Positions 988 through 58,479 of a DNA stretch of 64,000 nucleotides are shown here, one piece after another. The notes under the pieces were generated by a model, which saw only the letters and a program-made list of their open reading frames with translations, was not told the DNA's origin and did not search any database. How positions within the stretch are numbered: position 1 is the first letter of the stretch; each line of letters begins with the position of its first letter. The position numbers were made by a program, and so were the translations under genes. This DNA is from Candidatus Hadarchaeota archaeon (GTDB lineage: Archaea; CAYQAE01; CAYVLA01): contig CAZUNO010000002.1 in NCBI GenBank assembly GCA_964621445.1, forward strand, positions 128,001 to 192,000, read 5' to 3'.

Positions 988-2268
988 TTAACTATTTCTT
1001 GCCCAATCTGAAACAAAGACCCGGGGACGTTCAAGGGTGAAAATTCCCGGCATGATCCCATTAATTTCCCTCTCGGGTCTCGTTCGTCTGTAAACCTCTC
1101 TTAGAATTTTCTCCTCTCGATCGTTAGGAACCAAATTTCTCCTAGACATCACCCTGCGCTGGGTGGTGAGCGCCGATTTGAGCTTTAACTCCTTGGATTC
1201 TCCATTATTTCCGTCCGCCCACATGGAAAATGATGGAATGCAACCTAGCCCTTCTCCATAGATCTGGCTGGCAACGCCGAGGCTTGTACCAGGATTTATC
1301 TTCACCCCTGCCGACAATTTTACGTGATCCGCTATTGCACAACCGAGCTTCATCAGCCCGGTGTCGATTTCTCCATCCTCTCTCCTTACCCTTACCGGTC
1401 CATATGAATTTTTAAGCTCGCTGGTTATGGTACCCGCACCTACATTGACCCACTGGGATATGTAGGATCGTGCTATAAGTGACGCATGGCTGATGTTTGA
1501 ATGGGCCATCATTATCGACTCGGAACATTCACCATGAACTTTGCACCCCTCCATTATTACCGATTCCGGACCTACCTCTCCTCCCATGACCACCGTTTCC
1601 TTCCCTATGTAGATCGGCCCCCGGATCATGCTGTGTGAACGAACCTCCACTCCATTATCGAGATATATGGGGCCATCACGGGTATCAAGAAGGCAAAAGG
1701 GTTCGATGTAGGTATTTTTATGGCAAAAGAGATCGCGGCCCAGAACACTCGAACTTGGCAAACTGGTTATCCTTTTCCCGTGTTTCGAGAGTGAAAAAAG
1801 GTCCTTTGATAGGGCACTCCCATTGTTGATTATCAAGTCCCAGAAATATTCGATCATGTGAGCAGATTCATCGAGATCTATCTCCTCAACCTCCCTAGGA
1901 AGGGAATCCTCATTAAAACCGGATCTCTTGAACTTTATCCCCTCCTCTTGTCCAAGAAAAGCGGCGGCCAGTTCCCCATCAACGAAGAAAGCTATCTTCC
2001 CCGTCTCTGACCCCGATACCAGATCCCTTAACTGATATCCAAGATCAAGCACCCTTCCGTTAACGAAAAGGGTCCTCCCCCTTATCTTAGGATCGGGGCG
2101 GTAGCTGAGATAATCCCTGCATATGTACCTGAAATCGAATTCAGGAAGTGCCTCCTCTATTCTATCGCCCAGTGTCTGCGCACCACAGACCAGGTCGTAA
2201 ACAGGCCTCGTCCATGTCAGTGGCAGTAGCCGCTTGAATCCTTCGTCCTCGTAAATTATCCCATTCAT
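988..2268 (-). CDS. GlmU-related sugar-nucleotidyl/acyltransferase (NTP_transf_4 N-terminus plus hexapeptide repeats)
   Basis: 'LLPLTWTRPVYDLVCG' N-terminus, hexapeptide repeats, 'WVNVGAGTITSELKNSYG'. Directly downstream of glmS. Confidence 0.8.
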   Translation of the reverse strand: MNGIIYEDEGFKRLLPLTWTRPVYDLVCGAQTLGDRIEEALPEFDFRYICRDYLSYRPDPKIRGRTLFVNGRVLDLGYQLRDLVSGSETGKIAFFVDGELAAAFLGQEEGIKFKRSGFNEDSLPREVEEIDLDESAHMIEYFWDLIINNGSALSKDLFSLSKHGKRITSLPSSSVLGRDLFCHKNTYIEPFCLLDTRDGPIYLDNGVEVRSHSMIRGPIYIGKETVVMGGEVGPESVIMEGCKVHGECSESIMMAHSNISHASLIARSYISQWVNVGAGTITSELKNSYGPVRVRREDGEIDTGLMKLGCAIADHVKLSAGVKINPGTSLGVASQIYGEGLGCIPSFSMWADGNNGESKELKLKSALTTQRRVMSRRNLVPNDREEKILREVYRRTRPEREINGIMPGIFTLERPRVFVSDWARNS

Positions 2269-2272
2269 TCAA

Positions 2273-4033
2273 TCACCTAACCGTAACACATTTGGCAAGA
2301 TTCCTAGGTCTATCCGGATTGTTACCCCTCAAAATGGCCATATGATAGGCCAGAAGCTGCGCCGGTACAATGCCCATTACGGAAAAAAGATCCCCCGAAC
2401 CGGGAACGACGAATTGTTCATCAAATTCCAGCTCATCTCCATTTGTTATCCCAATTAACCTTGCTCCCCGTGTTTTTGCCTCTCGGGCGCTATTCACGAT
2501 CCCCAGGCTGTCCTGAGCAGCAAAAACTAGGCAGGGCACGCCCTCAGATATCAGAGCCAGGCTGCCATGACGGAGCTCGCTCCCCTCCAGGCCCAGGGAG
2601 GGAAGATAGCATATCTCCCGGATCTTCAACGCGGTCTCAAGGGCGGAAGGATAGGTCAGGTCCCGTCCGATAACGGCAATTACCGATGAGTCCTTCATGG
2701 ATTTTGCCAACCTGCCGGCCTCTTCATCCCATCTTGGTATCCATGTGGCCATGGACCCAGCTGCTTCAATAAGCTTCGACCTTCCCCGGTCCATGGTACC
2801 CCTCATTGCCTGGGCCATTAGGTAAAATGCAGCTACCTCCGCGATATAGGTCTTGGTCGCGGCCACGCTCACTTCGACCCCGGCACCCAAACATATGGAG
2901 AAATCGCTTGCCCTTTCCAGGGTCGACTGGGCATTATTCATCATCCCCACAACCCGGGTTCCCTGTCCTCGGGCGCATTCAACGGCGTCCAGAATATCGC
3001 TGGTCTCTCCCGACTGACTCACCGCCAATACCAGGTCATTCTCCCCCAAAATTTTGCTAAAAGAGGAAAAGCGGGATGAGAGCATGGGGTAGGTGCACAA
3101 GCCCCCTAGTTCGTTAATTAGGTAGGAACCGGTCAGACAAGCGTGATAGCTTGTCCCCGAACCAATCAGGAACGCTCTCTCACACCTGGAAATAGCACCC
3201 GCCATTTCCTCCAGGCCCTGAATTGAGCTCTTCCCGGACCTGTACAAGACATTCGGCTGCTGGTATATCTCCTTCTTCATGAAATGGGCGTAGCCGGATC
3301 TTCCAAGGTCCCTCGACCAATCCATTCTTGTATGAGACCGTCTTGTGACTGATCTCCCCTGCGAGCTCTCGATTAGTTCGGATCTTCCCTGCGAGATTAA
3401 GGCGATCTCGCCATCCTCGAGGGCTGTGAAGTTGCAGACGAATTTGGGCAGGCAGAAGGGGTCGGAGGAGGCCACACGGCCATCGGGTCCCTCCCCTATG
3501 ACCAGCGGAAGACCTTTTTTGCAGGCCACTATGTGATCCCGGTCCCAGGACGTCAGGACCAGAAAAGAGTACTTTCCCTCCAGCCTCCGAGAGCTATTTG
3601 AAATTGCAATGGACAACTCACTTCCTTCCCGAACCTCTTCCTCGACCAGGTGACTTATCACCTCGGTGTCGGTATCGCTGGTGAATCTGTGTCCCCGATT
3701 CGTGAGTTCCTCCCTGAGAATGTCCGCATTCTCAACGATTCCGTTGTGAACTATTGCGATATTACCGGAGCAATCAACCTGTGGATGGGCATTGGAAATG
3801 GTGACCTCCCCATGCGTGGCCCACCGGGTATGCCCTATCCCGATATTGCCCCCGAGCTCCCCCCCAGCGCTGGACAGGCCCTCGACTGGACCCATGCATT
3901 TCTTCCACTGCAACTCCCTATCAATGGTGGCAATACCGGCCGAGTCATATCCCCGATATTCCAGTTTAGCCAGGCATTCCATTAGAATCGGTGCCGCCCT
4001 TCCTTTGCCAATATACCCGATAATACCACACAT
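2273..4033 (-). CDS. glmS: glutamine--fructose-6-phosphate aminotransferase (isomerizing)
   Basis: MCGIIG start, LEYRGYDSAG, GHTRWATHG, SQSGET, AATKT, PRNLAK motifs. Confidence 0.95.
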   Translation of the reverse strand: MCGIIGYIGKGRAAPILMECLAKLEYRGYDSAGIATIDRELQWKKCMGPVEGLSSAGGELGGNIGIGHTRWATHGEVTISNAHPQVDCSGNIAIVHNGIVENADILREELTNRGHRFTSDTDTEVISHLVEEEVREGSELSIAISNSSRRLEGKYSFLVLTSWDRDHIVACKKGLPLVIGEGPDGRVASSDPFCLPKFVCNFTALEDGEIALISQGRSELIESSQGRSVTRRSHTRMDWSRDLGRSGYAHFMKKEIYQQPNVLYRSGKSSIQGLEEMAGAISRCERAFLIGSGTSYHACLTGSYLINELGGLCTYPMLSSRFSSFSKILGENDLVLAVSQSGETSDILDAVECARGQGTRVVGMMNNAQSTLERASDFSICLGAGVEVSVAATKTYIAEVAAFYLMAQAMRGTMDRGRSKLIEAAGSMATWIPRWDEEAGRLAKSMKDSSVIAVIGRDLTYPSALETALKIREICYLPSLGLEGSELRHGSLALISEGVPCLVFAAQDSLGIVNSAREAKTRGARLIGITNGDELEFDEQFVVPGSGDLFSVMGIVPAQLLAYHMAILRGNNPDRPRNLAKCVTVR

Positions 4034-5152: not shown

Positions 5153-5306
5153 CCAGTTGGGAGGCCACGGGGAAACATAATTGCACGAATAATATCACTA
5201 GGTGACACTTTTAAGAAACCTGGAGAAGATAGAAACCCACGAACTGGCACCAAAGCCCTATTACCATTAATTGGAAAACGGGCTGGTCCGGACGGGAGGA
5301 ATAAAC

Positions 5307-6332
5307 ATGGCCAAAATGAAACAGGCTAACCTGATAGGTGAAACCAAGCTAGAGCTTGAGGAGGCAGAAATCCCTGAGCCCAAACGACGGGAAATCCAGA
5401 TCAAGATCGAGGTATGCGGTATCTGTGGGTCGGATGTACATGCATATTACGGAAAACATCCTTTCGTAAGCCCGCCCATCGTGCCTGGACACGAGTTCTC
5501 GGGAACCATATCCAAACTTGGAGAAGGAGTCGGTGGGTTCAAAGCGGGGGATCGGGTCACCGTTGAGCCCTCACTTACCTGTGGTGAATGTTATAACTGC
5601 AGACATGGACTCTACAACATCTGTGCAAACCTTGAGGTACTTGGTTGCCAAGCTCCGGGGGCCTTTGCTCAATACATAAGCGTACCCGCAGAGAAGGTAT
5701 ATTCCCTCCCCGACGAGCTCGATTTCGATGCCGGTGCACTGGTGGAACCCTCCGCAGTGGGGGTACACGCGGTCAGGAAAAGCGAGCTCGGTCTCGGGGA
5801 TCGAGTCGTCGTTTTGGGTGCGGGAGTGATCGGACAGACGATAGTTCAGGCTGCTAGAGTGGCCGGGGCCGGTGAAATCATCGTCACCGGGCATCACGAG
5901 GGAAGGCTTGAGGTGGCCGAGGAGTTGGGTGCCGATGTAACATTCCTCGCCGGGGACACCGTGAAATTCATCGAGGACAACTACGGCCCCGACGGGATTG
6001 ATATCGTCTATGAGGCCGTGGGAGTTGGCACCACCATAAATCAGGCCATCGATATAGTACGAAAGGGAGCAAAGGTCATAGTAGTGGGGGTATTTGGCAA
6101 ACACCCGGAGACCAAGGTCGGTCTCATACAGGATAAGGAGATCGACATGCGAGGGGCCCTGATGTATGTACAGGAGGACTACCCCAGGACCATTGATCTT
6201 ATTGCCAAGGGTGAAATAAAGACTGAGCCCCTCATAACCTCCCGTTATCCGCTCGAACGGGTCTCAGAAGCCTTCGATCTAATTATGAACCAAAGGGACG
6301 ACACCCTGAAGGTCCTTCTGGACATTCCTTAG
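5307..6332 (+). CDS. zinc-binding dehydrogenase (sorbitol/threonine dehydrogenase family)
   Basis: CGICGSD, GHE, CxxCxxC...C structural Zn site, GAGVIG. GGAGG SD before ATG 5307. Confidence 0.9.
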   Translation: MAKMKQANLIGETKLELEEAEIPEPKRREIQIKIEVCGICGSDVHAYYGKHPFVSPPIVPGHEFSGTISKLGEGVGGFKAGDRVTVEPSLTCGECYNCRHGLYNICANLEVLGCQAPGAFAQYISVPAEKVYSLPDELDFDAGALVEPSAVGVHAVRKSELGLGDRVVVLGAGVIGQTIVQAARVAGAGEIIVTGHHEGRLEVAEELGADVTFLAGDTVKFIEDNYGPDGIDIVYEAVGVGTTINQAIDIVRKGAKVIVVGVFGKHPETKVGLIQDKEIDMRGALMYVQEDYPRTIDLIAKGEIKTEPLITSRYPLERVSEAFDLIMNQRDDTLKVLLDIP

Positions 6333-9300
6333 ATCCCATTCCTGGCGCCAAACGTCTTCAGGCCGAATACTAGGACCATGCAGCCTATCAATAGGCTCAA
6401 AACGGCAAGCGGGAACGTGTTCCCGGTGGATGTCCTGAATCCAACATCCCCGGAAGGCTCTTCCATATTTTCATCTCCAAAGCGCGATGCGACCTCGCCG
6501 CTTACCTGGAAGTCCACCCCCCTCGCCTCCGTTCTGACCTCGGGCTTGTAGTAGGAATATGCCGTGCTTGTCCCTCCCTTGGCCTTTACCGGTAGCAATG
6601 CCCTTATGTCAAACCCTATCTCGAGTTCCTCGCCTCTCTGAAGATCGTCGACATAGAAGATCACCTTCCTTCCACCTATCTCGTATCGGGTGGCCAGTCC
6701 ATCGGAAATTACCTGTTCGAGGCTGGAGTGCACGGGGGAGAATCCCGTGGGAACCGAAATGTCCAGGATCATCATGCCCGTCGAGTTGTAGGCCCCGGTG
6801 TATCTTGCCCTGGCAAGAACGTGAACTATGTCGTCCACCTCCACGCTTGTGGTATTGTATTCGATATCGAGCTCGAATTCGGGATTCGGATTCAAATCGC
6901 CAGGAAGGTTGAATCTCTTGGCCAGCTGAATTGTTACCTCACCCTCCCCCTTCATCTCGACAACCAGCTCCTCTCCTGCCAACGGGATGTCAATCACGTT
7001 TAGGACATCGAAGTTCTCCGCGGTTAGTTCCAGCGTGGTTAGCTTCTCGCCATCGACCTTTACCTCTATGGAGGAGTCAATGGTTCGAGTCTGCAGGCGT
7101 GCCGCCTTCATCAAGGCCTTCAAAGCCCACACCGTGTCCTGGGTGCTGCAGAAGCCACCCAAGGAGTTCCTCTGAGATGACAGCCAACGTACGGCTTGTT
7201 CGGCCTCTGACCTGCCCTCCAACATGAGTGCAAGAGCGGCGTAGGAAGTCGTCTCCACCGCATTTGATCTCTCTGACCCAGCGGCCCAGAATATCCCATG
7301 CTCATCCGTTCGGGCCATTTCCAGAAGGCGGCTTATCGCCTGCTCTGCATGGGGAGAACCAACCTTCTCCAGAAGAAGGGCCGCCAGGGCAAGAGTGTAG
7401 GGGTCCTCGGCCTGGATGGCGTTCTCCTCGATATACTGCACGGCCGCCTGAAGGCTGTCCTCGGCATTTCCATAATCTGATAGTGCTATGCCCACAAATG
7501 CAGTTAGAGCACTTCTGGACGATGGATCAAGACCACCAAGCATCTCCTGGTGACAAACGAAGCCAACGGGACTGAAGGAGCCGTTTCCATTTTGATGATC
7601 CCCAATCCAGGAGGCAGCATCCGAGAGCACGGTACTATCTATGCTCATTACCTCCCTGCATTCGCTGAAGATATCCAGGACAAATGAGGTCAGGAAGAGA
7701 CTGCCCTGGTCATCGTTTTCACCGAATGCCGAGAAGGATCCATCGCTCCTTCGGAAGGTCAGCTCTCGCTGGTAGCCGGTGGTCAAGAAATGCTCGGCCT
7801 TGGCCCTTATCTCCGGCTTGATTTGCCCGGTTGCATCCAGGTACCGGAGAATCTCCAGATCAGGGGCCATGAACATCATGTTCTGTTCCCCACACCCGTA
7901 GGGCATACCCAAAAGATCGTCCACCCCGTTGATGGTCTGTGCAACCATGCTTGGAGTAACTGCAAGCTGGATAGTTCCAGAGTCATCTACCATGGCCGGA
8001 GGCATGCTTAGATTGAATTTAAGGGGGCTATCCTCGGTGATTATGTCGTTTACCACCGTTTCACAGGGAGTTCCCTCGGGCTCCACCCGTATGTTCCTCT
8101 TAACCGCGTCCGCCCTCTCATGAGTACGGGCCGTTATCTCTATCTTGAACTGGCCAACCTTCTCCGGCCTGATGGTGAAACCTATTGAGGCCACGGAGTT
8201 ACCGGGAACGGTTACGATCTTTACCCTTTCATCAACTAGTTGGAACCACGAGTCCTCCTTTAGCTCCACCTGCACCTTCTGACTGTTCTCCACGTAATTG
8301 TAGATCTGTACCAATACCGGGAACTCCTCGCCCCGGGTAACTGCATAGGGCAGGTCAGGCTCCACGAAGAAATCCTGGAAAACCTTTAGCGAGCCTTCCG
8401 TCATCCCTATGCCCTGGGGGGAGGAGCTGACGGCGTGCAGCTTCCAGGTGGTTATGGTGTCGGGGGCAGTTAGCTTGACGCTGGCCCGGCCGGTCTCGTC
8501 GGTCATCAGGGTCGGGTTCCAGTACCAGGTTTCAGGGAAAAACTGCCTAACCCGCTTTACCTCGGCCAATTCGCTGTCCTGACCGGCGGATTGGGATTTT
8601 GGCGCGGCAAAATTATCTCCACCGGCCGCCTCCAGAACCTGTAATCCATCCCTACGTAACCAATCGGGCTGGCCCTGGGGCACATCCAAGGAGCTCGAGG
8701 TCATGACCTGAATACCCGCATCCTCGAAAACCTCCATTGATCCTCGTCTCTCCGTTAAAGGCCACAGGCGGTGGCCATCGGGATGAGCCTCGGCCTGAGG
8801 ACGCATGAAGATCTTCTCCAGCTCGTTGAAAACCTGTTTTAGGTTGAGCCTCCCCTCGTTCAGGGCATATACCGATTCATCCACTATGGACAGGCCTATC
8901 ATGGTGGCAACGCCTGAGCTCGATTCGATGTCCAATGTGACCTCTTCTCCCGGTTCGCATTTATCCTTGGAAAACTCCGCCGACAGATTCACGGGGTTTA
9001 CCAGGTCAACGTCGAAGGGAATCGAGTCCGCGGCCACCTCCAGGTTGGGATTTATCACGTAGGCAACCAGCTTGGCCTTGGGCATCATATCGGGAGTTAC
9101 CTTGAAGGAGATATACCTCCCATCAGCATAACCCGAGTGTATGGTCCTGCCACCTGATACCACATCATAATAGGCATTTCTATCTGCGGTGGTCAAGACC
9201 TCGAATGTGACCTCTTCCCCCACACTCACCTCGGCAGGCGAGATCTGCACTATGTGAACGAAGTAGCCACCCGGGGAGTACTGTGCATTTAAGGTGATCT

Positions 9301-10588
9301 GATTCTCGGATTCCGATCCCGGAAGGCTGGCCTTTAGATCGGCACTCGTACATTTGTCCGGCACATCGATCTCGACCGTGGTCATGCCCCTGAAGGTATT
9401 CACGCTTCGGGTTGTCCTGGTTGTCTTTCCGTTCTCCAGGCGATATACGACCTCGAATTCAACGCTTTTATCCAGGGGTTCTCCGTCCGGGGTCTCTGTT
9501 ACTATCATTACATCCATGGGTAGACCAGGCTTTACGGTCTGGCTGGCGGGGATTACCTGAATCACGGTCGGGGAGTCGGCTACCTTGAGAAGCTTTGTGT
9601 CCTTCTCCTCATGTCCCGCTCCATCGGTTACCGTGACATTTAGAATGACGCTGCCCAGGCCACCGGAACCGACGGTACCGGCAAGATACCCGGCCGCGGG
9701 GATTTCGAACTCGGCGACGCCGTTGGAAAGCCTTGAGTTGAATGTCGCGAACTTCTCCCAGTGAGCAACGTACTTGTAGGCCTCCACGAAAACGGTTCCC
9801 TCAACCGGTTTTCCGAAAAAGTACTCGGCATTTACCTGACCAGTTATCTCTTCATCGACCAGGAACCATCCCTTGGGCGTCTCCACACCTACATCGAATT
9901 TTGGAAGAACGTATTTCTCCACCCTGAAATCCACAGTGGCCGTTCCCGATTCGCTGTTTGCAGTTATCTTCCATGTTCCGGTGTTTACCTCTTTAGCCAG
10001 CGAAAGCTCGAAACTGGCCACACCAAATTCGTTGGCCGAGAGCTCCTTTCGGAATACCTTTATGCCTTTTGCATCGGATATGGATACGTTGATTTTCGTT
10101 TCAGTCGGTTTCAGGTCGGCGCTTAAGGCCAGCACGCGGCCGTAGAGGGTCTGACCTGGCTTGTAGATAGGCTTGTCGGTTTCTATTAACAGGGCTACCG
10201 AATCCGCCAATATTACCTCTCCCGATACGTGCTCTCTATCGTCCCTCCCGGCGAGGACCAGGTCGTAGGTCCCCTTCTCGATACCGGGAACATCGAAGCG
10301 TGCTATTAGATGTCCATCAGGTCCAGTTCTCCCCCTAAAAAGCTCCACCTCTTTCTCCTGATTTCTGATGAAAAGCGATACCCTGCGGTCAACCGGCCTA
10401 CCGGTATCGGGAGAGAAGGAAGAAATGCTAACCGAGGACTCAGTGCCTACATAAAACCTGTTTGGGGCCAGCACAATAAACTCGGCCGATGCGGCCTTTC
10501 CAACCATGAGGGTGGGAGATATAATCTGTAAAAAAAGAAACAGGCAGACGACCAGAGAGCCATATCGATTTTCCGTCAAAGCAATCAC
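6329..10588 (-). CDS. alpha-2-macroglobulin/thioester-containing protein, secreted and C-terminally membrane anchored
   Basis: Signal peptide, ETDKPIYKPGQ, EKYVLPKF, FFPETWYW, PDTITTW, thioester GCGEQ (7883-7897), FCSTQDT, C-terminal TM helix. Confidence 0.95.
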   Translation of the reverse strand: MIALTENRYGSLVVCLFLFLQIISPTLMVGKAASAEFIVLAPNRFYVGTESSVSISSFSPDTGRPVDRRVSLFIRNQEKEVELFRGRTGPDGHLIARFDVPGIEKGTYDLVLAGRDDREHVSGEVILADSVALLIETDKPIYKPGQTLYGRVLALSADLKPTETKINVSISDAKGIKVFRKELSANEFGVASFELSLAKEVNTGTWKITANSESGTATVDFRVEKYVLPKFDVGVETPKGWFLVDEEITGQVNAEYFFGKPVEGTVFVEAYKYVAHWEKFATFNSRLSNGVAEFEIPAAGYLAGTVGSGGLGSVILNVTVTDGAGHEEKDTKLLKVADSPTVIQVIPASQTVKPGLPMDVMIVTETPDGEPLDKSVEFEVVYRLENGKTTRTTRSVNTFRGMTTVEIDVPDKCTSADLKASLPGSESENQITLNAQYSPGGYFVHIVQISPAEVSVGEEVTFEVLTTADRNAYYDVVSGGRTIHSGYADGRYISFKVTPDMMPKAKLVAYVINPNLEVAADSIPFDVDLVNPVNLSAEFSKDKCEPGEEVTLDIESSSGVATMIGLSIVDESVYALNEGRLNLKQVFNELEKIFMRPQAEAHPDGHRLWPLTERRGSMEVFEDAGIQVMTSSSLDVPQGQPDWLRRDGLQVLEAAGGDNFAAPKSQSAGQDSELAEVKRVRQFFPETWYWNPTLMTDETGRASVKLTAPDTITTWKLHAVSSSPQGIGMTEGSLKVFQDFFVEPDLPYAVTRGEEFPVLVQIYNYVENSQKVQVELKEDSWFQLVDERVKIVTVPGNSVASIGFTIRPEKVGQFKIEITARTHERADAVKRNIRVEPEGTPCETVVNDIITEDSPLKFNLSMPPAMVDDSGTIQLAVTPSMVAQTINGVDDLLGMPYGCGEQNMMFMAPDLEILRYLDATGQIKPEIRAKAEHFLTTGYQRELTFRRSDGSFSAFGENDDQGSLFLTSFVLDIFSECREVMSIDSTVLSDAASWIGDHQNGNGSFSPVGFVCHQEMLGGLDPSSRSALTAFVGIALSDYGNAEDSLQAAVQYIEENAIQAEDPYTLALAALLLEKVGSPHAEQAISRLLEMARTDEHGIFWAAGSERSNAVETTSYAALALMLEGRSEAEQAVRWLSSQRNSLGGFCSTQDTVWALKALMKAARLQTRTIDSSIEVKVDGEKLTTLELTAENFDVLNVIDIPLAGEELVVEMKGEGEVTIQLAKRFNLPGDLNPNPEFELDIEYNTTSVEVDDIVHVLARARYTGAYNSTGMMILDISVPTGFSPVHSSLEQVISDGLATRYEIGGRKVIFYVDDLQRGEELEIGFDIRALLPVKAKGGTSTAYSYYKPEVRTEARGVDFQVSGEVASRFGDENMEEPSGDVGFRTSTGNTFPLAVLSLLIGCMVLVFGLKTFGARNGI

Positions 10589-10766: not shown

Positions 10767-11534
10767 CTAGTCCTCAAAGAAACGCATTAGCTCAATGGGT
10801 ACGGGGATAACCACGGTTGTGGGTTTGTCGGTGGTCGCATCGGTGATGGCCCCCATTAGTCTTAGCTGCAGCGCTCCGGGACTCTCGGTCATTATCTTGG
10901 TAGCCTTTGCCAGCTTCTCCGACGCCTGTTTCTCTCCCTGGGCAGTGATGACCCTAGACCGTCTTCCTCGTTCCGCCTCGGCCTGCCTGGCCATGGCCCT
11001 CTTCATGTCCTGAGGCACCTCGACGTTCTTGATTTCCACACCTGAAACCTTGATCCCCCATGGGTCAGTGGCTTCATCAACTGATGATTGGAGTTCCCGG
11101 TTTAGATCCTCCCTCTCGGTCAACAGCTGATCAAGAAAGGCCGTTCCGATTACGTTCCTCAAGCTGGTCTGTGAATACAGGGACGTCGCGGCAATGTAAT
11201 TCTCAACCTGGGTAACGGCGTTTTCGGGGTCCATTACCCTCATATATATCACTGCGTCCACTTTCACGGGAACGTTATCCCGGGTTATGACCTCCTGGGT
11301 GGGTACATCGAGTACCATGGTCCTGAGGTCGATCTTGACCATCTTCTCGAAAAATGGTATTACGAAGAACAGGCCAGGGCCACGAGCTCCGACCAGCCTA
11401 CCTAGCCTAAATATCACGCCTCTCTCGTACTCACGTACTATCTTGATCGCCCAAGCGATGAAGATGAGAAAGAGGAAAACAAGCGCTGCTGCGGGAAGGA
11501 GCCAGTCAGCCATGGAATCAACCAATCCGTTCAA
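10767..11534 (-). CDS. SPFH/band 7 stomatin-like (slipin) protein
   Basis: EYERGVIFRLGR, ITRDNVPVKVDAV, TDPWGIKV, AMARQAEAER. Confidence 0.93.
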   Translation of the reverse strand: MNGLVDSMADWLLPAAALVFLFLIFIAWAIKIVREYERGVIFRLGRLVGARGPGLFFVIPFFEKMVKIDLRTMVLDVPTQEVITRDNVPVKVDAVIYMRVMDPENAVTQVENYIAATSLYSQTSLRNVIGTAFLDQLLTEREDLNRELQSSVDEATDPWGIKVSGVEIKNVEVPQDMKRAMARQAEAERGRRSRVITAQGEKQASEKLAKATKIMTESPGALQLRLMGAITDATTDKPTTVVIPVPIELMRFFED

Positions 11535-11580: not shown

Positions 11581-12804
11581 CTAGTGGCCGCCGACTCGCC
11601 CCAGGGCAACCTCCACCGCTTCCACCAGGTCATCCAACTCGCGGTCGGTATAGTTGGTGCTATTGGGCAGGACGATGTTCCTCTTCAGGGAATCCTCAAG
11701 TACCGGGCAGGGCTGGGTGTCATTGAAATCGTTTAGGGGTGAGGTGAAGGGCCAACCAGACCGATTTATGGTTTCCCTCTTCTTGAAAAGATCCAGATCG
11801 TATGCCGGTCTACCACCGTAAATGAGACCAGCCGGGACTCCCTCCTCCTTTATGAGCTCTATCAGACCCGGGGCATCTATATTCATGTCATCCGGTATCC
11901 GATAAATCATCCCGTAGTAAACTGGCTTTGATCCGGGAATGACCTTTCTGGGTATGAGCCCCAATTTTTCAACCATCTTGTTGACATAATTAGCATTTTT
12001 GTTCACGATCTCAACGATCCTATCGAGCTTTCGGACCTGGGCCAGAGCCACAGCGCCCTGTAGCTCCGACATTCGATAATTGGTTCCCAGAGGCGCTCCT
12101 TCTTCCCGCGTGAGGCGATTATTCCCGTGATCATGGTAACGAATGGCGTTATCGTAGAGGGTGGGGTCATCGGTGGTCACTATGCCTCCCTCTCCGGAGG
12201 TCGCCATCTTGTTGAGCTGGAAACTAAAGCAACCGATATCCCCCAGGGACCCAACTTTTCCTCCCTTAAACTCGGACCCGTGGGCATGGGAAGCGTCCTC
12301 TACCAGGTAAAGGTCGTTCTCCTCAGCCACATCGCGGAGTCCATCCATGTCCGCCGGGAAGCCCAGCAGGTGAACCGGGACTATGGCCTTGGTCCTTGGG
12401 GTTACCGCCTGACGGACTGCATCGGGGTCAAGATTGAGGGTCTCGCCCTCCACATCCGCAAATACCGGCACTCCCCCGCACAGGAGGACGGGGCTGATAT
12501 TGGCAATGAAGGTCACCGGGGGCACTATTACCTCCTCCCCGGGCCCTATTCCGCAGGACTTGACCCCTAGGTGAACCGCTGCCGTTCCGCTGGAGACCCC
12601 AAGCGCGTACTCTGTTCCCACATATTCCGAAAATTCGCTCTCGAAATCCAAAACCTTATTCTGCGGGTCGGGACCATAGAAGCGAAATAGGGATTTGGAC
12701 TCCATTACCTCCCTAACTTCCTTCATCTCCTCCTCCCCTATCAGATTCACGCCAAATCCAGTATACGGCCAAGGTTCAGTTCGAACGGGATCGTCCTCTG
12801 GCAC
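11581..12804 (-). CDS. DegT/DnrJ/EryC1/StrS PLP aminotransferase
   Basis: SSGTAA, EDASHAHG, FSFQLNKMATSGEGG, NYRMSE. Confidence 0.9.
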   Translation of the reverse strand: MPEDDPVRTEPWPYTGFGVNLIGEEEMKEVREVMESKSLFRFYGPDPQNKVLDFESEFSEYVGTEYALGVSSGTAAVHLGVKSCGIGPGEEVIVPPVTFIANISPVLLCGGVPVFADVEGETLNLDPDAVRQAVTPRTKAIVPVHLLGFPADMDGLRDVAEENDLYLVEDASHAHGSEFKGGKVGSLGDIGCFSFQLNKMATSGEGGIVTTDDPTLYDNAIRYHDHGNNRLTREEGAPLGTNYRMSELQGAVALAQVRKLDRIVEIVNKNANYVNKMVEKLGLIPRKVIPGSKPVYYGMIYRIPDDMNIDAPGLIELIKEEGVPAGLIYGGRPAYDLDLFKKRETINRSGWPFTSPLNDFNDTQPCPVLEDSLKRNIVLPNSTNYTDRELDDLVEAVEVALGRVGGH

Positions 12805-29217: not shown

Positions 29218-30468
29218 TTGGAGAAGCTGGCCATAAATGGAGGGACACCCGTTCGGACGGAGAGACTTGATAACTCGCCAGCCATGGCCCCCAAGGAGAA
29301 GGAACTGGTTTTGAATGTCATCGAATCCAGAGAGCTTTGTGCCATTGATGGGTCCAAGGCGGATGAATTTGAACACAAGTTCGCCGACTTCGTGGGCAGC
29401 AAACATGCCATAGCCGTGAACACTGGTACCGCAGCGCTCCACATAGCCCTGGCCGCCGCCGGAGTAGGACCCGGGGATGAGGTTATCGTGCCGGCATACA
29501 CGTTCATTGCCAGCGCAACCTCCGTCCTACACTGCAACGCTGTTCCGGTCTTCTGTGATATTCTTCCCGATACCTATTGCATGGACCCGGAGGACGTGGA
29601 AAAGAGGATCACTGATAGCACAAAGGCTCTTATGCCGGTCCACCTCTTCGGTCATCCTGCGCAAATGGACGAGATACTTGACATTGCGGACCAATATGAC
29701 CTATCAGTTATCGAGGACAGCGCACAGGCCCACGCCGCCGAATACAAGGGGCGAAGCGTGGGTACACTAGGGGACCTGGGCTGTTTCTCCTTCCAGCAAA
29801 GCAAGAATATGACTGCCGGGGAGGGTGGACTCGTGGTCACCGATAACGATGAAATGGCCGATGTCTGCAGAAAGATTAGACATCACGGCGAGGATTATGG
29901 GCCGTCAGCATCACGGACCTATGAGAGTTTCATTCCCGGCTACAACTACAGGATTACCGAACTCTCCGCTGCCGTGCTACTGGCCCAGCTGGAGATGCTT
30001 GAAGCCTTCACGGAGAGGAGGATAGGTAACGCCAGTAGACTCGTCGATGAACTCAGTCAGTTTGATTGGATACAGGAACCCAGGAAAAGGAAATACGTAA
30101 AGCATGTCTATCATGTTTTCGTTCTCCGGATAAAGGAGTCCGAACTGGGGATGAGTCGTGACCAGGTGTTCCGAGCATATACTGCCGAGGGGCCCTATGC
30201 GGGCCTCGGATATTCCCGGCCTCTATACATGAACCCTCTATTTAAGGAAAAGGTTGGTTTCGGCGGCACAGATTGTCCCTACGGGTGCAAGCACTACCAG
30301 GGCTCCGTGTCCTATGAGGAAGGCCTTTGCCCGGTCACGGAACAGGTTATTCGGGACGCCCTCTGGATCGGTGGCGGTTGGACCATACACAATCTCACGC
30401 ACCAGGATATAGAGGACATCGTCCATTCCTTCTTAAAAATCAATGAGTATGCAATGTCCAAAACCTAA
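29218..30468 (+). CDS. DegT/DnrJ/EryC1/StrS PLP aminotransferase
   Basis: KLAINGGTPVR, NTGTAALH, EDSAQAH, SFQQSKNMTAGEGG. Confidence 0.92.
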   Translation: MEKLAINGGTPVRTERLDNSPAMAPKEKELVLNVIESRELCAIDGSKADEFEHKFADFVGSKHAIAVNTGTAALHIALAAAGVGPGDEVIVPAYTFIASATSVLHCNAVPVFCDILPDTYCMDPEDVEKRITDSTKALMPVHLFGHPAQMDEILDIADQYDLSVIEDSAQAHAAEYKGRSVGTLGDLGCFSFQQSKNMTAGEGGLVVTDNDEMADVCRKIRHHGEDYGPSASRTYESFIPGYNYRITELSAAVLLAQLEMLEAFTERRIGNASRLVDELSQFDWIQEPRKRKYVKHVYHVFVLRIKESELGMSRDQVFRAYTAEGPYAGLGYSRPLYMNPLFKEKVGFGGTDCPYGCKHYQGSVSYEEGLCPVTEQVIRDALWIGGGWTIHNLTHQDIEDIVHSFLKINEYAMSKT

Positions 30469-30672
30469 TTTGACCAGGGAATGTAATATCTGCTCTAACT
30501 TGGGTTTATGCACTATAATCCTCAACATTGCTCCGTCTTCAACAGGCTTGAAAAGTATCCGCTTACAACAGCGGTGGTAAAAGTTGCTCATTTGGTTTAG
30601 TGAGGTAGGCTAATATTCTCCCCAAACGAAATACTCAATAGACTGCATCTAATCTAGTAACAGGGTGAACCC

Positions 30673-31227
30673 TTGAAGAAAAAAATCAAGCCAGGAACCC
30701 TCCTTTATCCCGTTCCCGTGGCCCTAGTCAGCTGCGCTGGGAAAAAGAGCGGAGCGAATATCATAACCATAGCCTGGACCGGAATCATTTGCTCGGACCC
30801 ACCGATGGTCAGCATATCCATAAGGCCACACCGACACTCCTCTAATATCGTGAAGGACAGTAGACAATTTGTGATCAACGTGCCTACGGAGGACCTGCTG
30901 CAGAAGGTGGACAAGTGTGGAACAACCTCGGGTAGGTACCACGACAAGTTCCAGGACATCGGGCTGACGCCCCTGGATTCAAGCGAGGTGAATGCTCCAA
31001 TGATCAAGGAATGCCCTGTAAACCTGGAGTGCGAGGTCCAGGACATGATTGAGCTGGGTTCCCACGAGATGTTCATTGCCAAGGTCGTTGCCGCGCATGC
31101 CGATGAGGATGTACTTGAAAATGACCAGGTACAGGTATCGAGGGCAAAACCACTGGTATTCTGTCCCGTGAGCTCAGAGTATTGGAATCTCGATAAGAAG
31201 TTGGGTAACTACGCCTTTACCTCCTAG
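30673..31227 (+). CDS. flavin reductase-like (flavoredoxin) protein
   Basis: LYPVPVALVS, NIITIAW, IKECPVNLEC, LGSH. Confidence 0.9.
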   Translation: MKKKIKPGTLLYPVPVALVSCAGKKSGANIITIAWTGIICSDPPMVSISIRPHRHSSNIVKDSRQFVINVPTEDLLQKVDKCGTTSGRYHDKFQDIGLTPLDSSEVNAPMIKECPVNLECEVQDMIELGSHEMFIAKVVAAHADEDVLENDQVQVSRAKPLVFCPVSSEYWNLDKKLGNYAFTS

Positions 31228-31278
31228 GGATCTGGGAAACAGATAAACGCACGCTATCCAGTTCTTGGGTGATATGCC

Positions 31279-32787
31279 ATGGGACGGGACGCGGAAAGGC
31301 TAGTGATTGGATTCTCCTATTCCATGGTAGGGGGAGTAATTTCCCAAGCCCTTGTCTATCTTGCCGGGGTGCTGGTAATGAGGTTACTGGGCCCAGAGAG
31401 CTACGGCCTTTACCAGCTGGTATTTCTGGTCCCCCTTCTCTTCACCCCTATACTTAATCTTGGAATCGAATCCACTCTGGTTAGGTTCGTATCCAGATAT
31501 ATAGTCGACGACCGCAATAGGGGCATCAGGACGGCCAGATTTCTGTTCATGGCCAGGTTAGCAATCGCTCTGGCGGCAAGCCTACTCATTCTCGCCCTTT
31601 CTCCATGGATATCCAACTTGTTAGGAGAGGAGGTTACCTTGGGAGTCCAGATTACGGGAATTTTCCTATTGGGGAACATGCTCTACCTTTTCATGAACTC
31701 TTTCTTCCAGTCCTTCTTCCTCATGCGGGAACGGACGATAGTCATGACCACGCATGGAGCCTCCTATCTGGCACTCGTCCCTCTCCTCGTGTACCTAGAT
31801 TTCGGTTATCTTGCTCCCATAGTAGGATTCAGCATCGCAAAGTATCTTGCGGTGGCAATCGGCCTGATCCTGGCCTGGAGAAAGGACCTTAACCTGTTGG
31901 CCAGGCCCTCCCGGGAGGGCGTTCATCTTTTGGAGCAGGTCAAATTCGCAGCTCCCACTTATATCACCGTTTTACTGTGGGCCGTCTTCACCCAGGTGGG
32001 AGTCATAATTATCCGGGGTATGGGACTTCCGGTGGTTGAAATCGGGTATTTCCGTGGCGTATTTAACATCGTCATGTTGGGAGGTTTCCTGGCCATGATA
32101 CTCCATGTGGTGGTGTATCCCTATGTATCGGAACTTGAATCCCGCCAGGACCAGGAAGCTCTGCAATCATTTTGCAGTCTAATAACCCGCTTCCTGATAC
32201 TACTGGCAATCCCTGCATCAGCCGGATTCCTACTTGTTTCCAGGCCCACCCTGGAAGCACTGCTCCCCGATTACCTGCCGGCATTAACCCTTCTGAGAAT
32301 ACTATCTTTGATGCTCGTCTTCCTCCCCCTGTTCCAGATCAGCAAGACCATGCTCCTAGGCCTGGGCAAACCCAGAATAGTTGCCTACTCTAGTCTAATC
32401 GCCACGGCCACCGTATGCTCAATGGGTTCCCTTCTTTCCTTTTTCGCCGGGACCGAGGGACTTTCCTTCTCCTACACCATCGGCATCCTTCTGGCCACGT
32501 GCTACACGTTATACCAGCTTCGTAAGGCCATAGGCTTGGAGGTAGAGATCCTCACCATCGGAAAGATAGGACTATCCACCTTGATTATGGGAATAATCAC
32601 CCATCTCACTATGCAAACACTTCAAAAACCGATTTTCCAGATAGCAATAGGAATACCAGTTGGCCTGGCAACATACTTGGGGCTCATATACCTCCTTAAA
32701 GCTCTAAAACCACGAGACATGAAAATAATCAAGACCGCCGTCGGTATAGCCAAGGAACAGACCCTAGTTAAGAATCGCGGGGAATAA
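31279..32787 (+). CDS. Wzx/MurJ-like oligosaccharide flippase
   Basis: About 14 TM, 'RLLGPESYGLY', 'LGLGKP'. Confidence 0.85.
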   Translation: MGRDAERLVIGFSYSMVGGVISQALVYLAGVLVMRLLGPESYGLYQLVFLVPLLFTPILNLGIESTLVRFVSRYIVDDRNRGIRTARFLFMARLAIALAASLLILALSPWISNLLGEEVTLGVQITGIFLLGNMLYLFMNSFFQSFFLMRERTIVMTTHGASYLALVPLLVYLDFGYLAPIVGFSIAKYLAVAIGLILAWRKDLNLLARPSREGVHLLEQVKFAAPTYITVLLWAVFTQVGVIIIRGMGLPVVEIGYFRGVFNIVMLGGFLAMILHVVVYPYVSELESRQDQEALQSFCSLITRFLILLAIPASAGFLLVSRPTLEALLPDYLPALTLLRILSLMLVFLPLFQISKTMLLGLGKPRIVAYSSLIATATVCSMGSLLSFFAGTEGLSFSYTIGILLATCYTLYQLRKAIGLEVEILTIGKIGLSTLIMGIITHLTMQTLQKPIFQIAIGIPVGLATYLGLIYLLKALKPRDMKIIKTAVGIAKEQTLVKNRGE

Positions 32788-41064: not shown

Positions 41065-42315
41065 TTGATTAACTCAATTAATATCACCGGTAAATTGAAT
41101 CAGTACCTGGATATCCTAGCCAGGATTTGCTTATTTCTCGTATGGATAGCACTGATGTCACCCGCTGTGAACTGTTTTGATGATTCTAACAGAGCAAAGG
41201 TCCTTTACATTGGTGACACCGGCTTTGAAACCTGGCGGGATATCGCCGGAGACCCCCTCTTGATCACCACAGCGGTCCCAGCAAGTGTGGGTCATTTTCC
41301 AAGTGATCAAATTGAAAGGTACATGAGGCAATACATTCCCAGGACTTACACAAGGTACTCATCTGATGTGGACCTGCTCATACTGAGTGATACAGACCGC
41401 CAGCTTTTCACCACGAAGCAACAAACCTGGTTCAAGAAGGGCGTTTTTGAGGAAGGCCAAGGATTAATCATGGCTGGAGGGCTTGAGGCCTTCGGAGGAG
41501 CCGGGTGGGGGAGTTCCTGGGAGGGTTCCTCAGTTGCTGATGTACTCCCCGTGAATCTTTTGACCGGTGAGGTATGGAATCTGCATCCATTCCATGCCAG
41601 ACCAACCGAGGAATCGTCAAATCATCCCCTAATCACCTCCCTCCCCTGGAACACTATGCCCACTTTTGGCGGTATGAATAGGGTAACCACCAAGACATGG
41701 GCGGAGGTGCTTCTGAAGGCAGCTGGACCTGGAATTAGCTCCTCCGAGAATCTACCGGTTCTAGTCCATGGGGAAGTGGGGGAGGGTTCATCTCTGGCCC
41801 ATACACCTGACTGGAACCCTGGTTGGGGAGGCAGGGTTATGAGGGAATGGGAGTATTACCCAGATTATCTGATTAATATGGCATATCTGATGGTCGGTGT
41901 TTCCATACCGCAGAATCTGCAGTTATCACACCTGGTGAGAACCGAGTTGGCAAACCATATTCAGCGGATGAGCGTCACCCTGTCCTTTCTCGAGTTCGCC
42001 GAGGATTTTGGCGCCAACATACACCCCCTGGAAATGCGTCTATCAAAGGCAGCCCAAATGAAGGATGAGGCCGATGCTTTGTATATCGATCAGGATCTTG
42101 AGGCTGTTCTGGAAAAGATGAGGCAGGTCCGGGATCTGATGGATGATATAAACCAGCAGGCCATAGAACTCAAGGACAGGGCCCTTGTCTGGGTCTACGC
42201 CGTGGAGTGGCTGGCGGTCACCGGAACCTTCCTTGTGTGTGGGTTCATTCTGTGGACTTTGATGGTCCGTAAGAGATTCTATAAAAGAGTGGAGATGACC
42301 AAATTACAGGGTTAA
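41065..42315 (+). CDS. uncharacterised surface-protein family, paralog 2
   Basis: RYMRQYIPRTY, GLIMAGGLEAFGG..W..SSVADVLPV (DUF1355-like), FAEDFGAN, ALVWVYAVEW. Confidence 0.85.
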   Translation: MINSINITGKLNQYLDILARICLFLVWIALMSPAVNCFDDSNRAKVLYIGDTGFETWRDIAGDPLLITTAVPASVGHFPSDQIERYMRQYIPRTYTRYSSDVDLLILSDTDRQLFTTKQQTWFKKGVFEEGQGLIMAGGLEAFGGAGWGSSWEGSSVADVLPVNLLTGEVWNLHPFHARPTEESSNHPLITSLPWNTMPTFGGMNRVTTKTWAEVLLKAAGPGISSSENLPVLVHGEVGEGSSLAHTPDWNPGWGGRVMREWEYYPDYLINMAYLMVGVSIPQNLQLSHLVRTELANHIQRMSVTLSFLEFAEDFGANIHPLEMRLSKAAQMKDEADALYIDQDLEAVLEKMRQVRDLMDDINQQAIELKDRALVWVYAVEWLAVTGTFLVCGFILWTLMVRKRFYKRVEMTKLQG

Positions 42316-57237: not shown

Positions 57238-58479
57238 TCAATTTAGGAATCGGGTCTGCCCGGCCCTCTTGTAAAGACGCCTCCTGATCATCAGAGTGTA
57301 GAGCAAGTAGCCGCAGATCATTAGCGTACCGGTCACCGAGCTCCATTCGATTGCATAGATCCACAGCAGAGCTCGGTCCTTGACCTCCATTGCCCGGTCG
57401 ACCATTTCCTGGAGATCTCGGTTTAGGTTCTCGACCCCCTCGAGAGCACCTTGCAGTTCTAGATCTATGTAAAGATCGTCGACTTTCTCCCGTTCCGAAT
57501 CTATTTCGCCCAGATCTCGAAGAAGAGGATTGGTATTGGCATTGAATTTGTCGGCGAAATCTATTATCGATAGGACGAGAAGTCTTCTTGAATCGTAGGT
57601 GGAGAACTCCTCTCGCACGGTCTTGTCCATGGTGGGGTCCGGTATTCCCGTCTGGGCCGAATAGTAAATGAAGGATGAAAAGACGTGCGGAGCCCATTCC
57701 CAAGCACCTCCCCTAGTCGAGAATGCATATGCTGCCCGGCCTCCCCAGTCGTGGACCACGGCCAGCCCCCTTCCCGACCCCACATCAATATATGCAAGCG
57801 CCGGGCGGCCCGGGGGATGGGAATCGGTCTCCGCTACCACCACGGCGCCTTGTTTGTCGAATACCCGGTTATGGGCGACCCAGATTGCCCTCTCCCAGGG
57901 CACTCCAGATACCAGCGGATGTCCAGGCTTCACGATATTGACCTTGAAAAGAAAACGGGACCAGCCCTTGCCATCATCTGCGCATTCAACGGGTAGGATT
58001 TCTCCTATAACCGTCTTACACCAGTTATTATTGACTCCTCGCCAATCAGTTCCCCCGAAGGACGCCGGGTCGTCAGCCATTACAAATCCCATGCCCCCTC
58101 CAACTACCCCATCACGGGTCCAGAAAAGGAATTTTCCCAGGTGATACTGAAAAGCGCCCGTTATGCAAACAACGTCCATATCCCTTACCAGGTCCTCCTC
58201 CCTCCTGGGCAAATAGAGGCGATAGTACCTCATGGTCTCACGGGTACCTATGATCGCCACCTCACTGGGGACCGGATACATCTCGATCCTCGGGTCATCG
58301 AAGAAGAAGGTGGCAGCAAATCCCCCGCGGTTAAAGGCGTCTCCAATATGGAGCAGTCGGATCCTCCCGTCTTCGGGATCCGTTTTTCCCTCTCCCGTCA
58401 AAAGTAGCCCGTTGAGGAGGAGATAGAATAAGATGGCCCTTAGGTAACTAGACCGGGAAAACTCCCCCTTAAATTTCAT
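57238..58479 (-). CDS. uncharacterised surface-protein family, paralog 5
   Basis: RYYRLYLPR, FVMADDPASFGG, FADKFNAN, ALLWIYAIEW..TG...MIRRRLY. Confidence 0.85.
   Translation of the reverse strand: MKFKGEFSRSSYLRAILFYLLLNGLLLTGEGKTDPEDGRIRLLHIGDAFNRGGFAATFFFDDPRIEMYPVPSEVAIIGTRETMRYYRLYLPRREEDLVRDMDVVCITGAFQYHLGKFLFWTRDGVVGGGMGFVMADDPASFGGTDWRGVNNNWCKTVIGEILPVECADDGKGWSRFLFKVNIVKPGHPLVSGVPWERAIWVAHNRVFDKQGAVVVAETDSHPPGRPALAYIDVGSGRGLAVVHDWGGRAAYAFSTRGGAWEWAPHVFSSFIYYSAQTGIPDPTMDKTVREEFSTYDSRRLLVLSIIDFADKFNANTNPLLRDLGEIDSEREKVDDLYIDLELQGALEGVENLNRDLQEMVDRAMEVKDRALLWIYAIEWSSVTGTLMICGYLLYTLMIRRRLYKRAGQTRFLN

Follow-up and report, generated by a model that had tools for sequence, protein, structure and literature searches.

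Among the genes carried by a 64,000-nt stretch of DNA from Candidatus Hadarchaeota archaeon (GCA_964621445.1, contig CAZUNO010000002.1, positions 128,001-192,000; hereafter the window) is one for a 1419-aa protein of the alpha-2-macroglobulin/thioester-containing protein (A2M/TEP) superfamily, and its translation has confirmed it as a genuine, intact and well-preserved member of that known superfamily. On the strength of its predicted sequence and a structural model we think it probable, if some way from certain, that the product is a cell-surface, membrane-tethered and probably monomeric covalent thioester protease trap of the A2M family. Within its clade the gene is ordinary and it is the clade itself that is the interesting part, which from sequence comparisons appears to be a widespread, unstudied prokaryotic branch that holds the nearest microbial relatives of the animal thioester proteins.

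The gene is present in a single copy in its own genome bin (3.21 Mb in 89 contigs, 96.2% complete, 4.2% contamination). Its product matches the Pfam models TED_complement, A2M and A2M_recep (E-values in Table 1), A2M_BRD (3e-24), MG2 (7.7e-19), MG3 (3.7e-14) and MG4 (1.1e-5), with all of these other than TED_complement and including MG4 noted as exceeding the Pfam cut-offs, and the strength of the matches puts the predicted A2M/TEP identity far above chance. Neither an ANATO nor an NTR/C345C domain is among the nine Pfam families matched at E <= 0.01, and no NCBIfam model matched the whole protein. An earlier note on this DNA had described a secreted protein of 1419 aa with a number of named motifs, each of which is found in the translation, the coordinates of GCGEQ and HQEMLGG being exact.

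The N-terminus reads as a signal peptide with R8 in the n-region, a hydrophobic core from S11 to G30 and an ASA/E site after residue 35; it is without a lipobox, and its nearest relatives (P0003-P0009) keep an A[AS]SAE[YF] motif in the corresponding position. At the other end the hydrophobic segment carries a basic tail typical of a retained helix. Anchoring differs across the best 120 homologues, of which 65, mostly from Methanosarcinales, start with a lipobox-like N-terminus, nine end in a C-terminal helix and 46 show neither, the last being ANME-2-like and Planctomycetota-like proteins, some of the latter with dockerin-type C-termini. The nine helix carriers are exactly P0001 and P0003-P0010, which make up the protein's own subclade, and because it is confined to that subclade among the best 120 homologues the C-terminal anchor is taken to be a lineage-specific variant. 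To our knowledge anchoring through GPI, of the CD109 kind, is not expected in archaea. Sorting of the C-terminus by an archaeosortase (PGF-CTERM or PEF-CTERM type) was considered and seems doubtful: the genome has two exosortase-family genes, one of them with a weak resemblance to ArtC (60.5 bits, where the cut-off is 100), but none of the NCBIfam sorting-signal (CTERM) models matched the C-terminal 63 residues, and no shared C-terminal motif could be seen by eye among the 43 of 2871 open reading frames (ORFs) that have a similar tail. The genome also has giant ORFs that presumably encode surface proteins; a minus-strand ORF of 4798 aa (G000:C7, end near 51527 of the reversed contig) has a very hydrophobic C-terminal helix and basic tail, and others with similar tails are of 1966, 1655 and 1182 aa.

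Solved relatives, thioester motif and histidine

Comparisons of sequence and of the predicted model support the view that the archaeal protein is much closer to animal CD109, A2ML1, A2M, TEP1 and C3 than to the characterised bacterial A2M. Compared whole with sequences of the PDB it matches CD109 at 5.8e-125, A2M at 1.3e-111, A2ML1 at 1.3e-110, C3 at 1.9e-95 and TEP1 at 4.2e-89, with no bacterial chain among the best 60 of 82 matches. The thioester domain (TED) alone scores 196 bits with CD109 (7e-57), 161 with A2ML1, 144 with A2M, 140 with TEP1, 120 with C4 and 116 with C3, and 23 bits (E 4.9e-4) with E. coli YfhM. In an AlphaFold2 model of residues 590-1325 only, built from a 48-row alignment (pLDDT 82.4, pTM 0.69), the TED is predicted as a helical toroid with pLDDT mostly above 90. 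Fold matches of this model to A2ML1, CD109, C3 and A2M have a probability of 1.00 and no bacterial A2M is among the fold matches listed; TMq is 0.68 for native A2ML1, 0.67 for CD109, 0.66 for A2M, 0.66-0.67 for C5 and 0.63-0.64 for C3, as against 0.45 for induced A2M, 0.39 for active CD109 and 0.35 for C3b.

The best sequence match among solved structures is CD109 (8s3o, 9fx2/9fx3), over residues 129-1318 of the archaeal protein, and the two share an identical PYGCGEQNM, a histidine in the same column, a similar length (~1420-1450 aa) and surface attachment via the C-terminal end. Identity is however only 31-34%, the archaeal protein lies outside the animal clade in trees, and it has few cysteines and therefore lacks the animal-type disulfide set; furthermore CD109 is described as GPI-anchored (PMC7960916) whereas the archaeal protein has a plain helix and basic tail. 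A second source describes CD109 as a membrane-anchored protease inhibitor (PMC12927315). The domain order of A2ML1 (7q1y) and A2M (6tav, 7von), with the bait before FPETW, is also that of the archaeal protein; A2ML1 carries the histidine and in its native form is the best fold match, but both are soluble rather than tethered and only 28-29% identical, and A2M is a tetramer with Asn in place of His. C3 shares a nearly identical HQEM[IL]GG...ALTAFV, and the histidine is aligned in C4-B as well, but the archaeal protein is without an anaphylatoxin or C345C/NTR domain, ends in MG8 and a membrane helix, has a weaker whole-protein score with C3 than with CD109 and has no convertase-type partner genes nearby. 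ECAM, the E. coli YfhM protein (PDB 4ziu and others), is likewise a thioester-bearing, membrane-tethered prokaryotic macroglobulin and is presumed to guard the envelope against proteases; it differs in its 1653 aa, its PYGCLEQTA, its lipobox N-terminus, its pbpC neighbour and the Tyr in its His column. The traits that the earlier note had given as typical of bacterial A2Ms (CLEQ, a lipoprotein N-terminus and pbpC) are thus those seen in YfhM.

The G, C, E and Q of GCGEQ, like the F, P, E and W of FFPETWYW, are invariant in the 48-row alignment. Phmmer alignments with PDB sequences place the segment around His1013, vgfvcHQEMLGGL..ALTAFVGIAL, against dapviHQEMIGGL..ALTAFVLISL of C3d and lspviHRSMQGGL..ALTAFVTIAL of C4-B, both ungapped, and the residues paired with His1013, counted from the alignment starts, are His133 in C3d and His1125 in the chain of C4-B. 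These we take to be the catalytic histidines, that of C4-B lying in the LSPVIH isotypic motif; the catalytic His of C3 and C4-B is said to have been treated by Law and Dodds in 1997. With the TED alone, CD109 (grviHselqgg) and A2ML1 (gnllHtamkgg) both have His in this column and A2M has Asn (gsllNnaikgg), so that the contrast which had been drawn between human C3 and A2M at this position is borne out. According to PMC9156758, the nascent thioester of A2ML1, C3 and C4B is attacked by a histidine close by, and the acyl-imidazole so formed can react with hydroxyls as well as amines; the paper describes A2ML1 as a monomeric inhibitor that depends on covalent capture. Because of the ungapped alignments with C3d and C4-B, the His column of CD109 and A2ML1 and this chemistry, the proposal that His1013 occupies the position of the catalytic His of C3 holds at the level of sequence.

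The histidine is not a peculiarity of this protein. Counted from a fast alignment, in which the columns of distant families are less certain, His occupies the column in 45 of 46 sampled prokaryotic rows with GCGEQNM, the other having Tyr, and this is so in all groups: the protein's own (7/7), Altiarchaeota (2/2), Methanosarcinales-like (10/10), Chloroflexota (5/5), Planctomycetota-like (8/8) and other representatives (13/14). In the same alignment His is found in 7 of 10 animal rows (Asn in two, Ser in one), in 11 of 14 rows of a family with GCFEQTS (Asp in two, Gly in one) and in three of nine rows of a group with VSGCGEQS, the remaining six having Tyr, as does the single row of ECAM. The pattern P[YF]GCGEQNM occurs in 120 of the 121 stored records of the best 120 homologues, with the archaeal protein itself counted twice; in the remaining record, P0044, the pattern caught an N-terminal site first. 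A cysteine, Cys1012 (window 7553-7555), stands immediately before His1013 (VCH). It is seen again in the rows of Hadarchaeota-like and Chloroflexota proteins and in part of those that are Altiarchaeota, Methanosarcinales-like or Planctomycetota-like.

On these sequence comparisons GCGEQ together with His is best read as the ancestral state of a large prokaryotic clade and not as an animal peculiarity in one archaeon. GCGEQ had been put forward as a metazoan signature, which does not stand, as it is common to the prokaryotic relatives and is also found as VSGCGEQS in a clade of Thermoplasmata and Methanomassiliicoccales. Nor is the histidine a hallmark of complement, because the protease inhibitors CD109 and A2ML1 carry the same residue; it therefore predicts reactivity towards hydroxyl and amine groups and not opsonisation or tagging of the complement kind. 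The suggestion of complement/TEP-like chemistry in an archaeon survives as a fair sequence prediction, given the position of the His, but the trait is clade-wide and shared with protease inhibitors.

The prokaryotic clade and the origin of the animal family

A search of 5.8 billion clustered proteins returned 2741 matches at E <= 0.001 among 7999 scored candidates. The best 120 of these are 45-100% identical to the archaeal protein and all prokaryotic where named; they include proteins from metagenome-assembled genomes at 59-69%, ANME-2, Methanosarcinales and Methanogaster at ~46-50%, the isolates Methanolobus, Methanococcoides and Methanomethylovorans in the same range of ~46-50%, and Planctomycetota such as Anaerobaca lacustris at ~48%, and in databases they already go by 'CD109 antigen' or 'alpha-2-macroglobulin family protein'. 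Further homologues in GTDB species genomes are from Altiarchaeota and Sedimentisphaerales (47-48%), Chloroflexota (40-43%) and, more distantly (28-33%), the archaeal VSGCGEQS group of Thermoplasmata, Methanomassiliicoccales and Hydrothermarchaeota. The N-termini of this last group (L030-L039, e.g. L030:5782-10284 and L037:935-5476) appear to start with a hydrophobic anchor stretch. An exhaustive HMMER scan of 1.84 billion representatives with residues 130-1325 (E <= 1e-3) matched 18,887 proteins, with the GCGEQNM group first at 38-53% identity, followed at 460-560 bits by an interleaved set made up of a very large prokaryotic P.GCFEQTS family, the VSGCGEQS group and animal proteins, the last identified by exact look-up as CD109-like proteins or TEPs of brachiopod, chiton, mussel, millipede and mosquito and an A2ML1-like protein of fish.

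Three trees rooted on E. coli YfhM were compared, namely a FastTree of 80 rows, a quick IQ-TREE (LG+C20 PMSF) of 44 rows and a careful LG+G4 tree of 44 rows x 1337 columns, 36 of the 80 rows being left out of the 44-row trees; alignment used fast MAFFT settings after the first 500 residues of a fused fish protein (P0147) had been trimmed. All three agree on the groupings. In the careful tree the prokaryotes with GCGEQNM group with the animals, to the exclusion of GCFEQTS, VSGCGEQS and ECAM, with a support of 99/100, and within this group the Hadarchaeota-like subclade of the archaeal protein is supported at 100/100 and joins the Methanosarcinales/Altiarchaeota and Planctomycetota-like rows at 100/99. 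The animals are monophyletic, with the archaeal protein excluded (100/100), and are joined by a Chloroflexota-type subclade (100/100). The phylogeny that the earlier note had called for therefore does set the protein outside the ordinary ECAM-type bacterial clade, but it nests in a prokaryotic clade and not among animals. The trees hold a single vertebrate row and are without C3/C4/C5, human CD109 and human A2M, so that the relations of the archaeal protein to human CD109, A2M and C3/C4/C5 are read from PDB scores only; a search with a profile built from five animal TEPs had yielded little besides TEP isoforms of mosquitoes.

The position of the animals within this clade bears on the origin of their own thioester proteins. 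Forcing the 26 prokaryotic GCGEQNM rows together cost 41.8 log-likelihood units with a p-value of 0.054 in the approximately unbiased test (p-AU), and as this value is marginal and the group was named after the tree had been seen, a nesting of animals inside prokaryotes is favoured and not established. The root was chosen and not inferred, the ECAM branch on which it lies is very long (3.8), the longest, and outside the clade in all trees, and many rows have a deviant composition; all three outgroup families of the GCGEQNM and animal grouping are prokaryotic. It is conceivable, and we put it forward tentatively as rather less than an even chance, that animals acquired their thioester proteins (CD109, TEPs, A2M and, in the end, C3/C4) from the prokaryotic GCGEQNM/His clade. 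If true, the transfer would have been from a prokaryote to an early animal, the reverse of the usual view, and His-assisted chemistry of the complement type would already have been present in microbes. The usual view is put in PMC9156758, where the bacterial inhibitors of the family are thought to come from animals and are called structurally quite distinct, and a root on the animal stem would restore this direction from animal to bacteria.

That archaea have A2M homologues with CxEQ is already known. In the sections consulted, Makarova et al. 2021 (PMC8416519) report TEDs with an intact CxEQ in 27 proteins of 24 archaeal genomes, name WP_015053894.1 of Methanolobus psychrophilus as acquired from bacteria and place Methanomicrobia proteins close to ECAM-type A2Ms. 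A protein of Methanolobus psychrophilus R15 (P0072), 46% identical to the protein described here, belongs to the present clade and comes from the same species as WP_015053894.1, with which it may be identical. Those sections make no mention of the histidine, of a kinship with animal TEPs, of Hadarchaeota or of a C-terminal anchor; the introduction of a preprint also states that proteins of the A2M family occur in archaea and bacteria. No literature on the prokaryotic GCGEQNM/His clade was found beyond PMC8416519, whose supplementary tables may list further members, and no paper was found to relate the clade to animal TEPs, to record it from Hadarchaeota, Planctomycetota or Chloroflexota, or to describe the C-terminal anchor. 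What appears to be new, as judged by sequence, is the placement of the archaeal protein in a prokaryotic clade that groups with animal TEPs and the anchor specific to its lineage.

Proposed function and its alternatives

As a trap the protein would be exported by the Sec route and its C-terminal helix would keep it at the outer surface of the membrane, with the thioester between Cys899 and Gln902 buried in the resting state between the TED and the MG8/CUB domains. A foreign endopeptidase would cut the exposed and variable bait loop (about residues 601-680), upon which the protein would rearrange and expose the thioester; His1013 would then attack it to form an acyl-imidazole, through which a hydroxyl or amine of the attacking protease, or of the nearest target, would be fixed covalently. 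Such trapping would protect the archaeon's S-layer and its membrane proteins. In this scheme we infer that the thioester forms, that proteases are both its trigger and its target, and the oligomeric state.

Residues 601-680 lie at the canonical bait position, as both sequence variation and the model suggest, and are variable before the FPETW block. Column entropy over the best 120 homologues peaks here at 1.6-2.5 bits with a gap fraction of up to 0.39, and the flanks, with blocks at 0.46-0.74, are among the most conserved parts (about 0.5 bits at residues 561-600 and 0.6-1.0 at 681-760). In the model pLDDT falls below 50 at residues 590-612 and 641-671, and a ~95% identical strain from a second study has an in-frame deletion of 3 nt at window 8604, about residue 662. 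A trap is favoured because the bait is the most variable part, lying between conserved blocks, predicted to be disordered and with an in-frame indel between strains, and also because the architecture of the A2M family is complete (MG2-4, BRD, A2M, TED and the receptor-binding domain) and without domains specific to complement. It is further favoured because the nearest solved relatives (CD109, A2M and A2ML1) are protease inhibitors, because the thioester motif and the histidine, which in A2ML1 gives reactivity towards hydroxyl and amine groups, are conserved through the clade, because the model superposes on native forms and poorly on activated ones, and because tethering varies across the clade.

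Several points weigh against a protease trap. No conserved protease or partner gene that would point to a target was found nearby in the loci compared, and there is no RNA run among the listed sequencing runs that hold the gene. Chemistry of the His type is equally compatible with the tagging of surfaces other than proteases, and the native-like pose of the model, which covers residues 590-1325 only, may reflect the training of the predictor on native structures.

We regard it as unlikely that the activated, His-assisted thioester acts in the manner of an opsonin, labelling glycans or proteins of viruses or competitors so as to mark or immobilise rather than inhibit them. His1013 and Glu1015 do match the HQE of C3, and His1013 the catalytic position of C4-B, the acyl-imidazole route permits attachment to hydroxyls (PMC9156758), and the insect and mollusc TEPs that group with the clade are described as opsonin-like in abstracts. 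The same His is however found in the protease inhibitors CD109 and A2ML1, ANATO and C345C domains were not found with Pfam, and no conserved neighbouring gene for a convertase, receptor or effector was found in the loci compared; furthermore the protein remains attached to the cell that makes it, and a thioester of short life would for the most part mark the agent of the cleavage. An action on glycans or viruses, which the earlier note had included, would be speculation.

It seems more doubtful again that the thioester serves covalent adhesion, by which a cell in a mat or consortium would be fixed to partner cells, to extracellular polymers or to mineral-bound organics. The family is frequent in mat and sediment archaea (ANME-2, Methanosarcinales) and in Planctomycetota with dockerin-type C-termini, the sequencing runs that hold the gene are labelled as microbial-mat and hypersaline-lake metagenomes and the gene sits among genes for surface-glycan biosynthesis, but a protease-labile, hypervariable bait has no obvious role in adhesion, thioesters of the A2M family stay buried until triggered and no adhesin domain was found with Pfam. 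As far as is known, thioester adhesins use a different fold, which also counts against adhesion.

Genomic setting and significance

The gene lies between genes for a zinc alcohol dehydrogenase (ADH) and an SPFH/Band 7 protein (Table 1).

Table 1. Features of the A2M/TEP-family gene and its immediate neighbours, in positions of the window
Feature	Positions	Strand	Basis and remarks
Whole A2M/TEP-family gene, 1419 aa	6329..10588	-	ORF list, translation, Pfam; GTG start, stop codon 6329-6331
Signal peptide, residues 1-35	10484..10588	-	Read from translation
N-terminal macroglobulin array: MG2 135-223, MG3 225-279, MG4 349-421, bait-region domain 448-576	8861..10186	-	Pfam
Bait-like segment, residues 601-680	8549..8788	-	Variable, gappy, predicted disordered
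FFPETWYW, conserved start of post-bait MG domain	8519..8542	-	Translation; low-complexity stretch before
A2M (MG7) domain, residues 687-776	8261..8530	-	Pfam PF00207, 4.6e-29
Thioester domain (TED), residues 880-1160	7109..7951	-	Pfam PF07678, 2e-72
GCGEQ thioester motif, residues 898-902 (Cys899, Gln902)	7883..7897	-	Translation
HQEMLGG, His1013 then Glu1015	7532..7552	-	Ungapped phmmer alignments
A2M receptor-binding/MG8-type domain, residues 1269-1353	6530..6784	-	Pfam PF07677, 1.5e-15
C-terminal membrane helix F1392-L1410 and short basic tail KTFGARNGI	6332..6415	-	Translation
Zinc alcohol dehydrogenase gene, convergent	5271..6332	+	Pfam; conserved syntenic neighbour, functional link not indicated
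SPFH/Band 7 gene, upstream, same strand as A2M gene	10767..11534	-	Pfam; syntenic within lineage only

This arrangement is kept in the nearest labelled relatives, two of Candidatus Hadarchaeota archaeon (L011, L014) and one of an uncultured Thermococci archaeon (L018), in which the A2M gene product is 59-64% identical and the gene is flanked by ADH (72-78%) and SPFH/Band 7 (71-83%), the Band 7 copy of L018 being an end piece of 75 residues only. Three short loci of same-family genomes (L002, L004, L005) reach the ADH side only, with ADH 72-79% identical. The TED family is present in 3/3 same-family genomes, 0/1 of the same class and 8/41 overall, the window's own included. Both gene junctions are bridged by public contigs, two of them identical to the window (X2 record 10 and X1 record 8) and three, from a second study, of the ~95% identical strain (X4 records 19 and 23, X5 record 26). 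The window also encodes an HVO_A0114/S_layer_C protein and a DUF835 protein, and ribosomal protein L19e is encoded in the bin. A confirmation of the archaeal context of the contig had been asked for and is supplied by the synteny in six relatives together with the contigs of two studies. That a bacterial or eukaryotic gene was wrongly placed in the bin, as its 89 contigs, its 4.22% contamination and the close homologues in Planctomycetota and Chloroflexota might suggest, is very unlikely because of the synteny in six related genomes or contigs (the labelled ones being Hadarchaeota or Thermococci), the contigs from two separate studies that span both junctions, the monophyly of the gene's own subclade at 100/100, the archaeal-type genes in the window and L19e in the bin.

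Beyond the lineage-specific ADH and SPFH genes no conserved functional partner was found beside the A2M gene in the loci compared. Clade members of other lineages adjoin genes for PolD, FeoB, CorA, URO-D, acyl-CoA dehydrogenase and similar, with SPFH absent there, and pbpC, which abuts yfhM in E. coli K-12, does not adjoin the archaeal gene. A locus of Candidatus Methanogaster has a gene for a PolD large subunit with a LAGLIDADG intein (L016:441-5402, +) upstream of the macroglobulin gene; in the Hadarchaeota bin itself, 96% complete, PF03833 (PolD large-subunit N-terminal, DP2_N) had no match, and it was matched in three archaeal control genomes. In a Chloroflexota locus the macroglobulin gene is followed by one for an 858-aa protein (L020:10564-13140, +) with VIT and von Willebrand A domains, the domain pair of animal inter-alpha-trypsin-inhibitor heavy chains. 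Elsewhere in the window the A2M gene has surface-glycan genes around it (988-4033, 11581-12804 and 29218-32787), comprising a sugar nucleotidyltransferase, a GlmS-like amidotransferase, two DegT-type aminotransferases and a polysaccharide flippase-type protein. A single region of GATase1_like (PF07090) is matched by each of two ORFs (41065-42315, +, 416 aa, and 57238-58479, -, 413 aa), which lie 15 kb from each other and may be paralogues. Searches of the 64-kb window gave neither a tRNA nor an Rfam family.

Animal innate immunity depends heavily on thioester proteins. The bacterial versions that have been characterised (ECAM, Salmonella A2M) are structurally distant, whereas the GCGEQNM branch keeps the animal-type motif, length, fold and histidine, and it is present in isolates (Methanolobus, Methanococcoides) as well as in uncultured archaea and bacteria. 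The branch offers a simple, disulfide-poor and probably monomeric model for thioester chemistry of the His type, a candidate for a protein of envelope defence in archaea, a group in which little is known of defences outside the cell, and a concrete test of the origin of the animal family.

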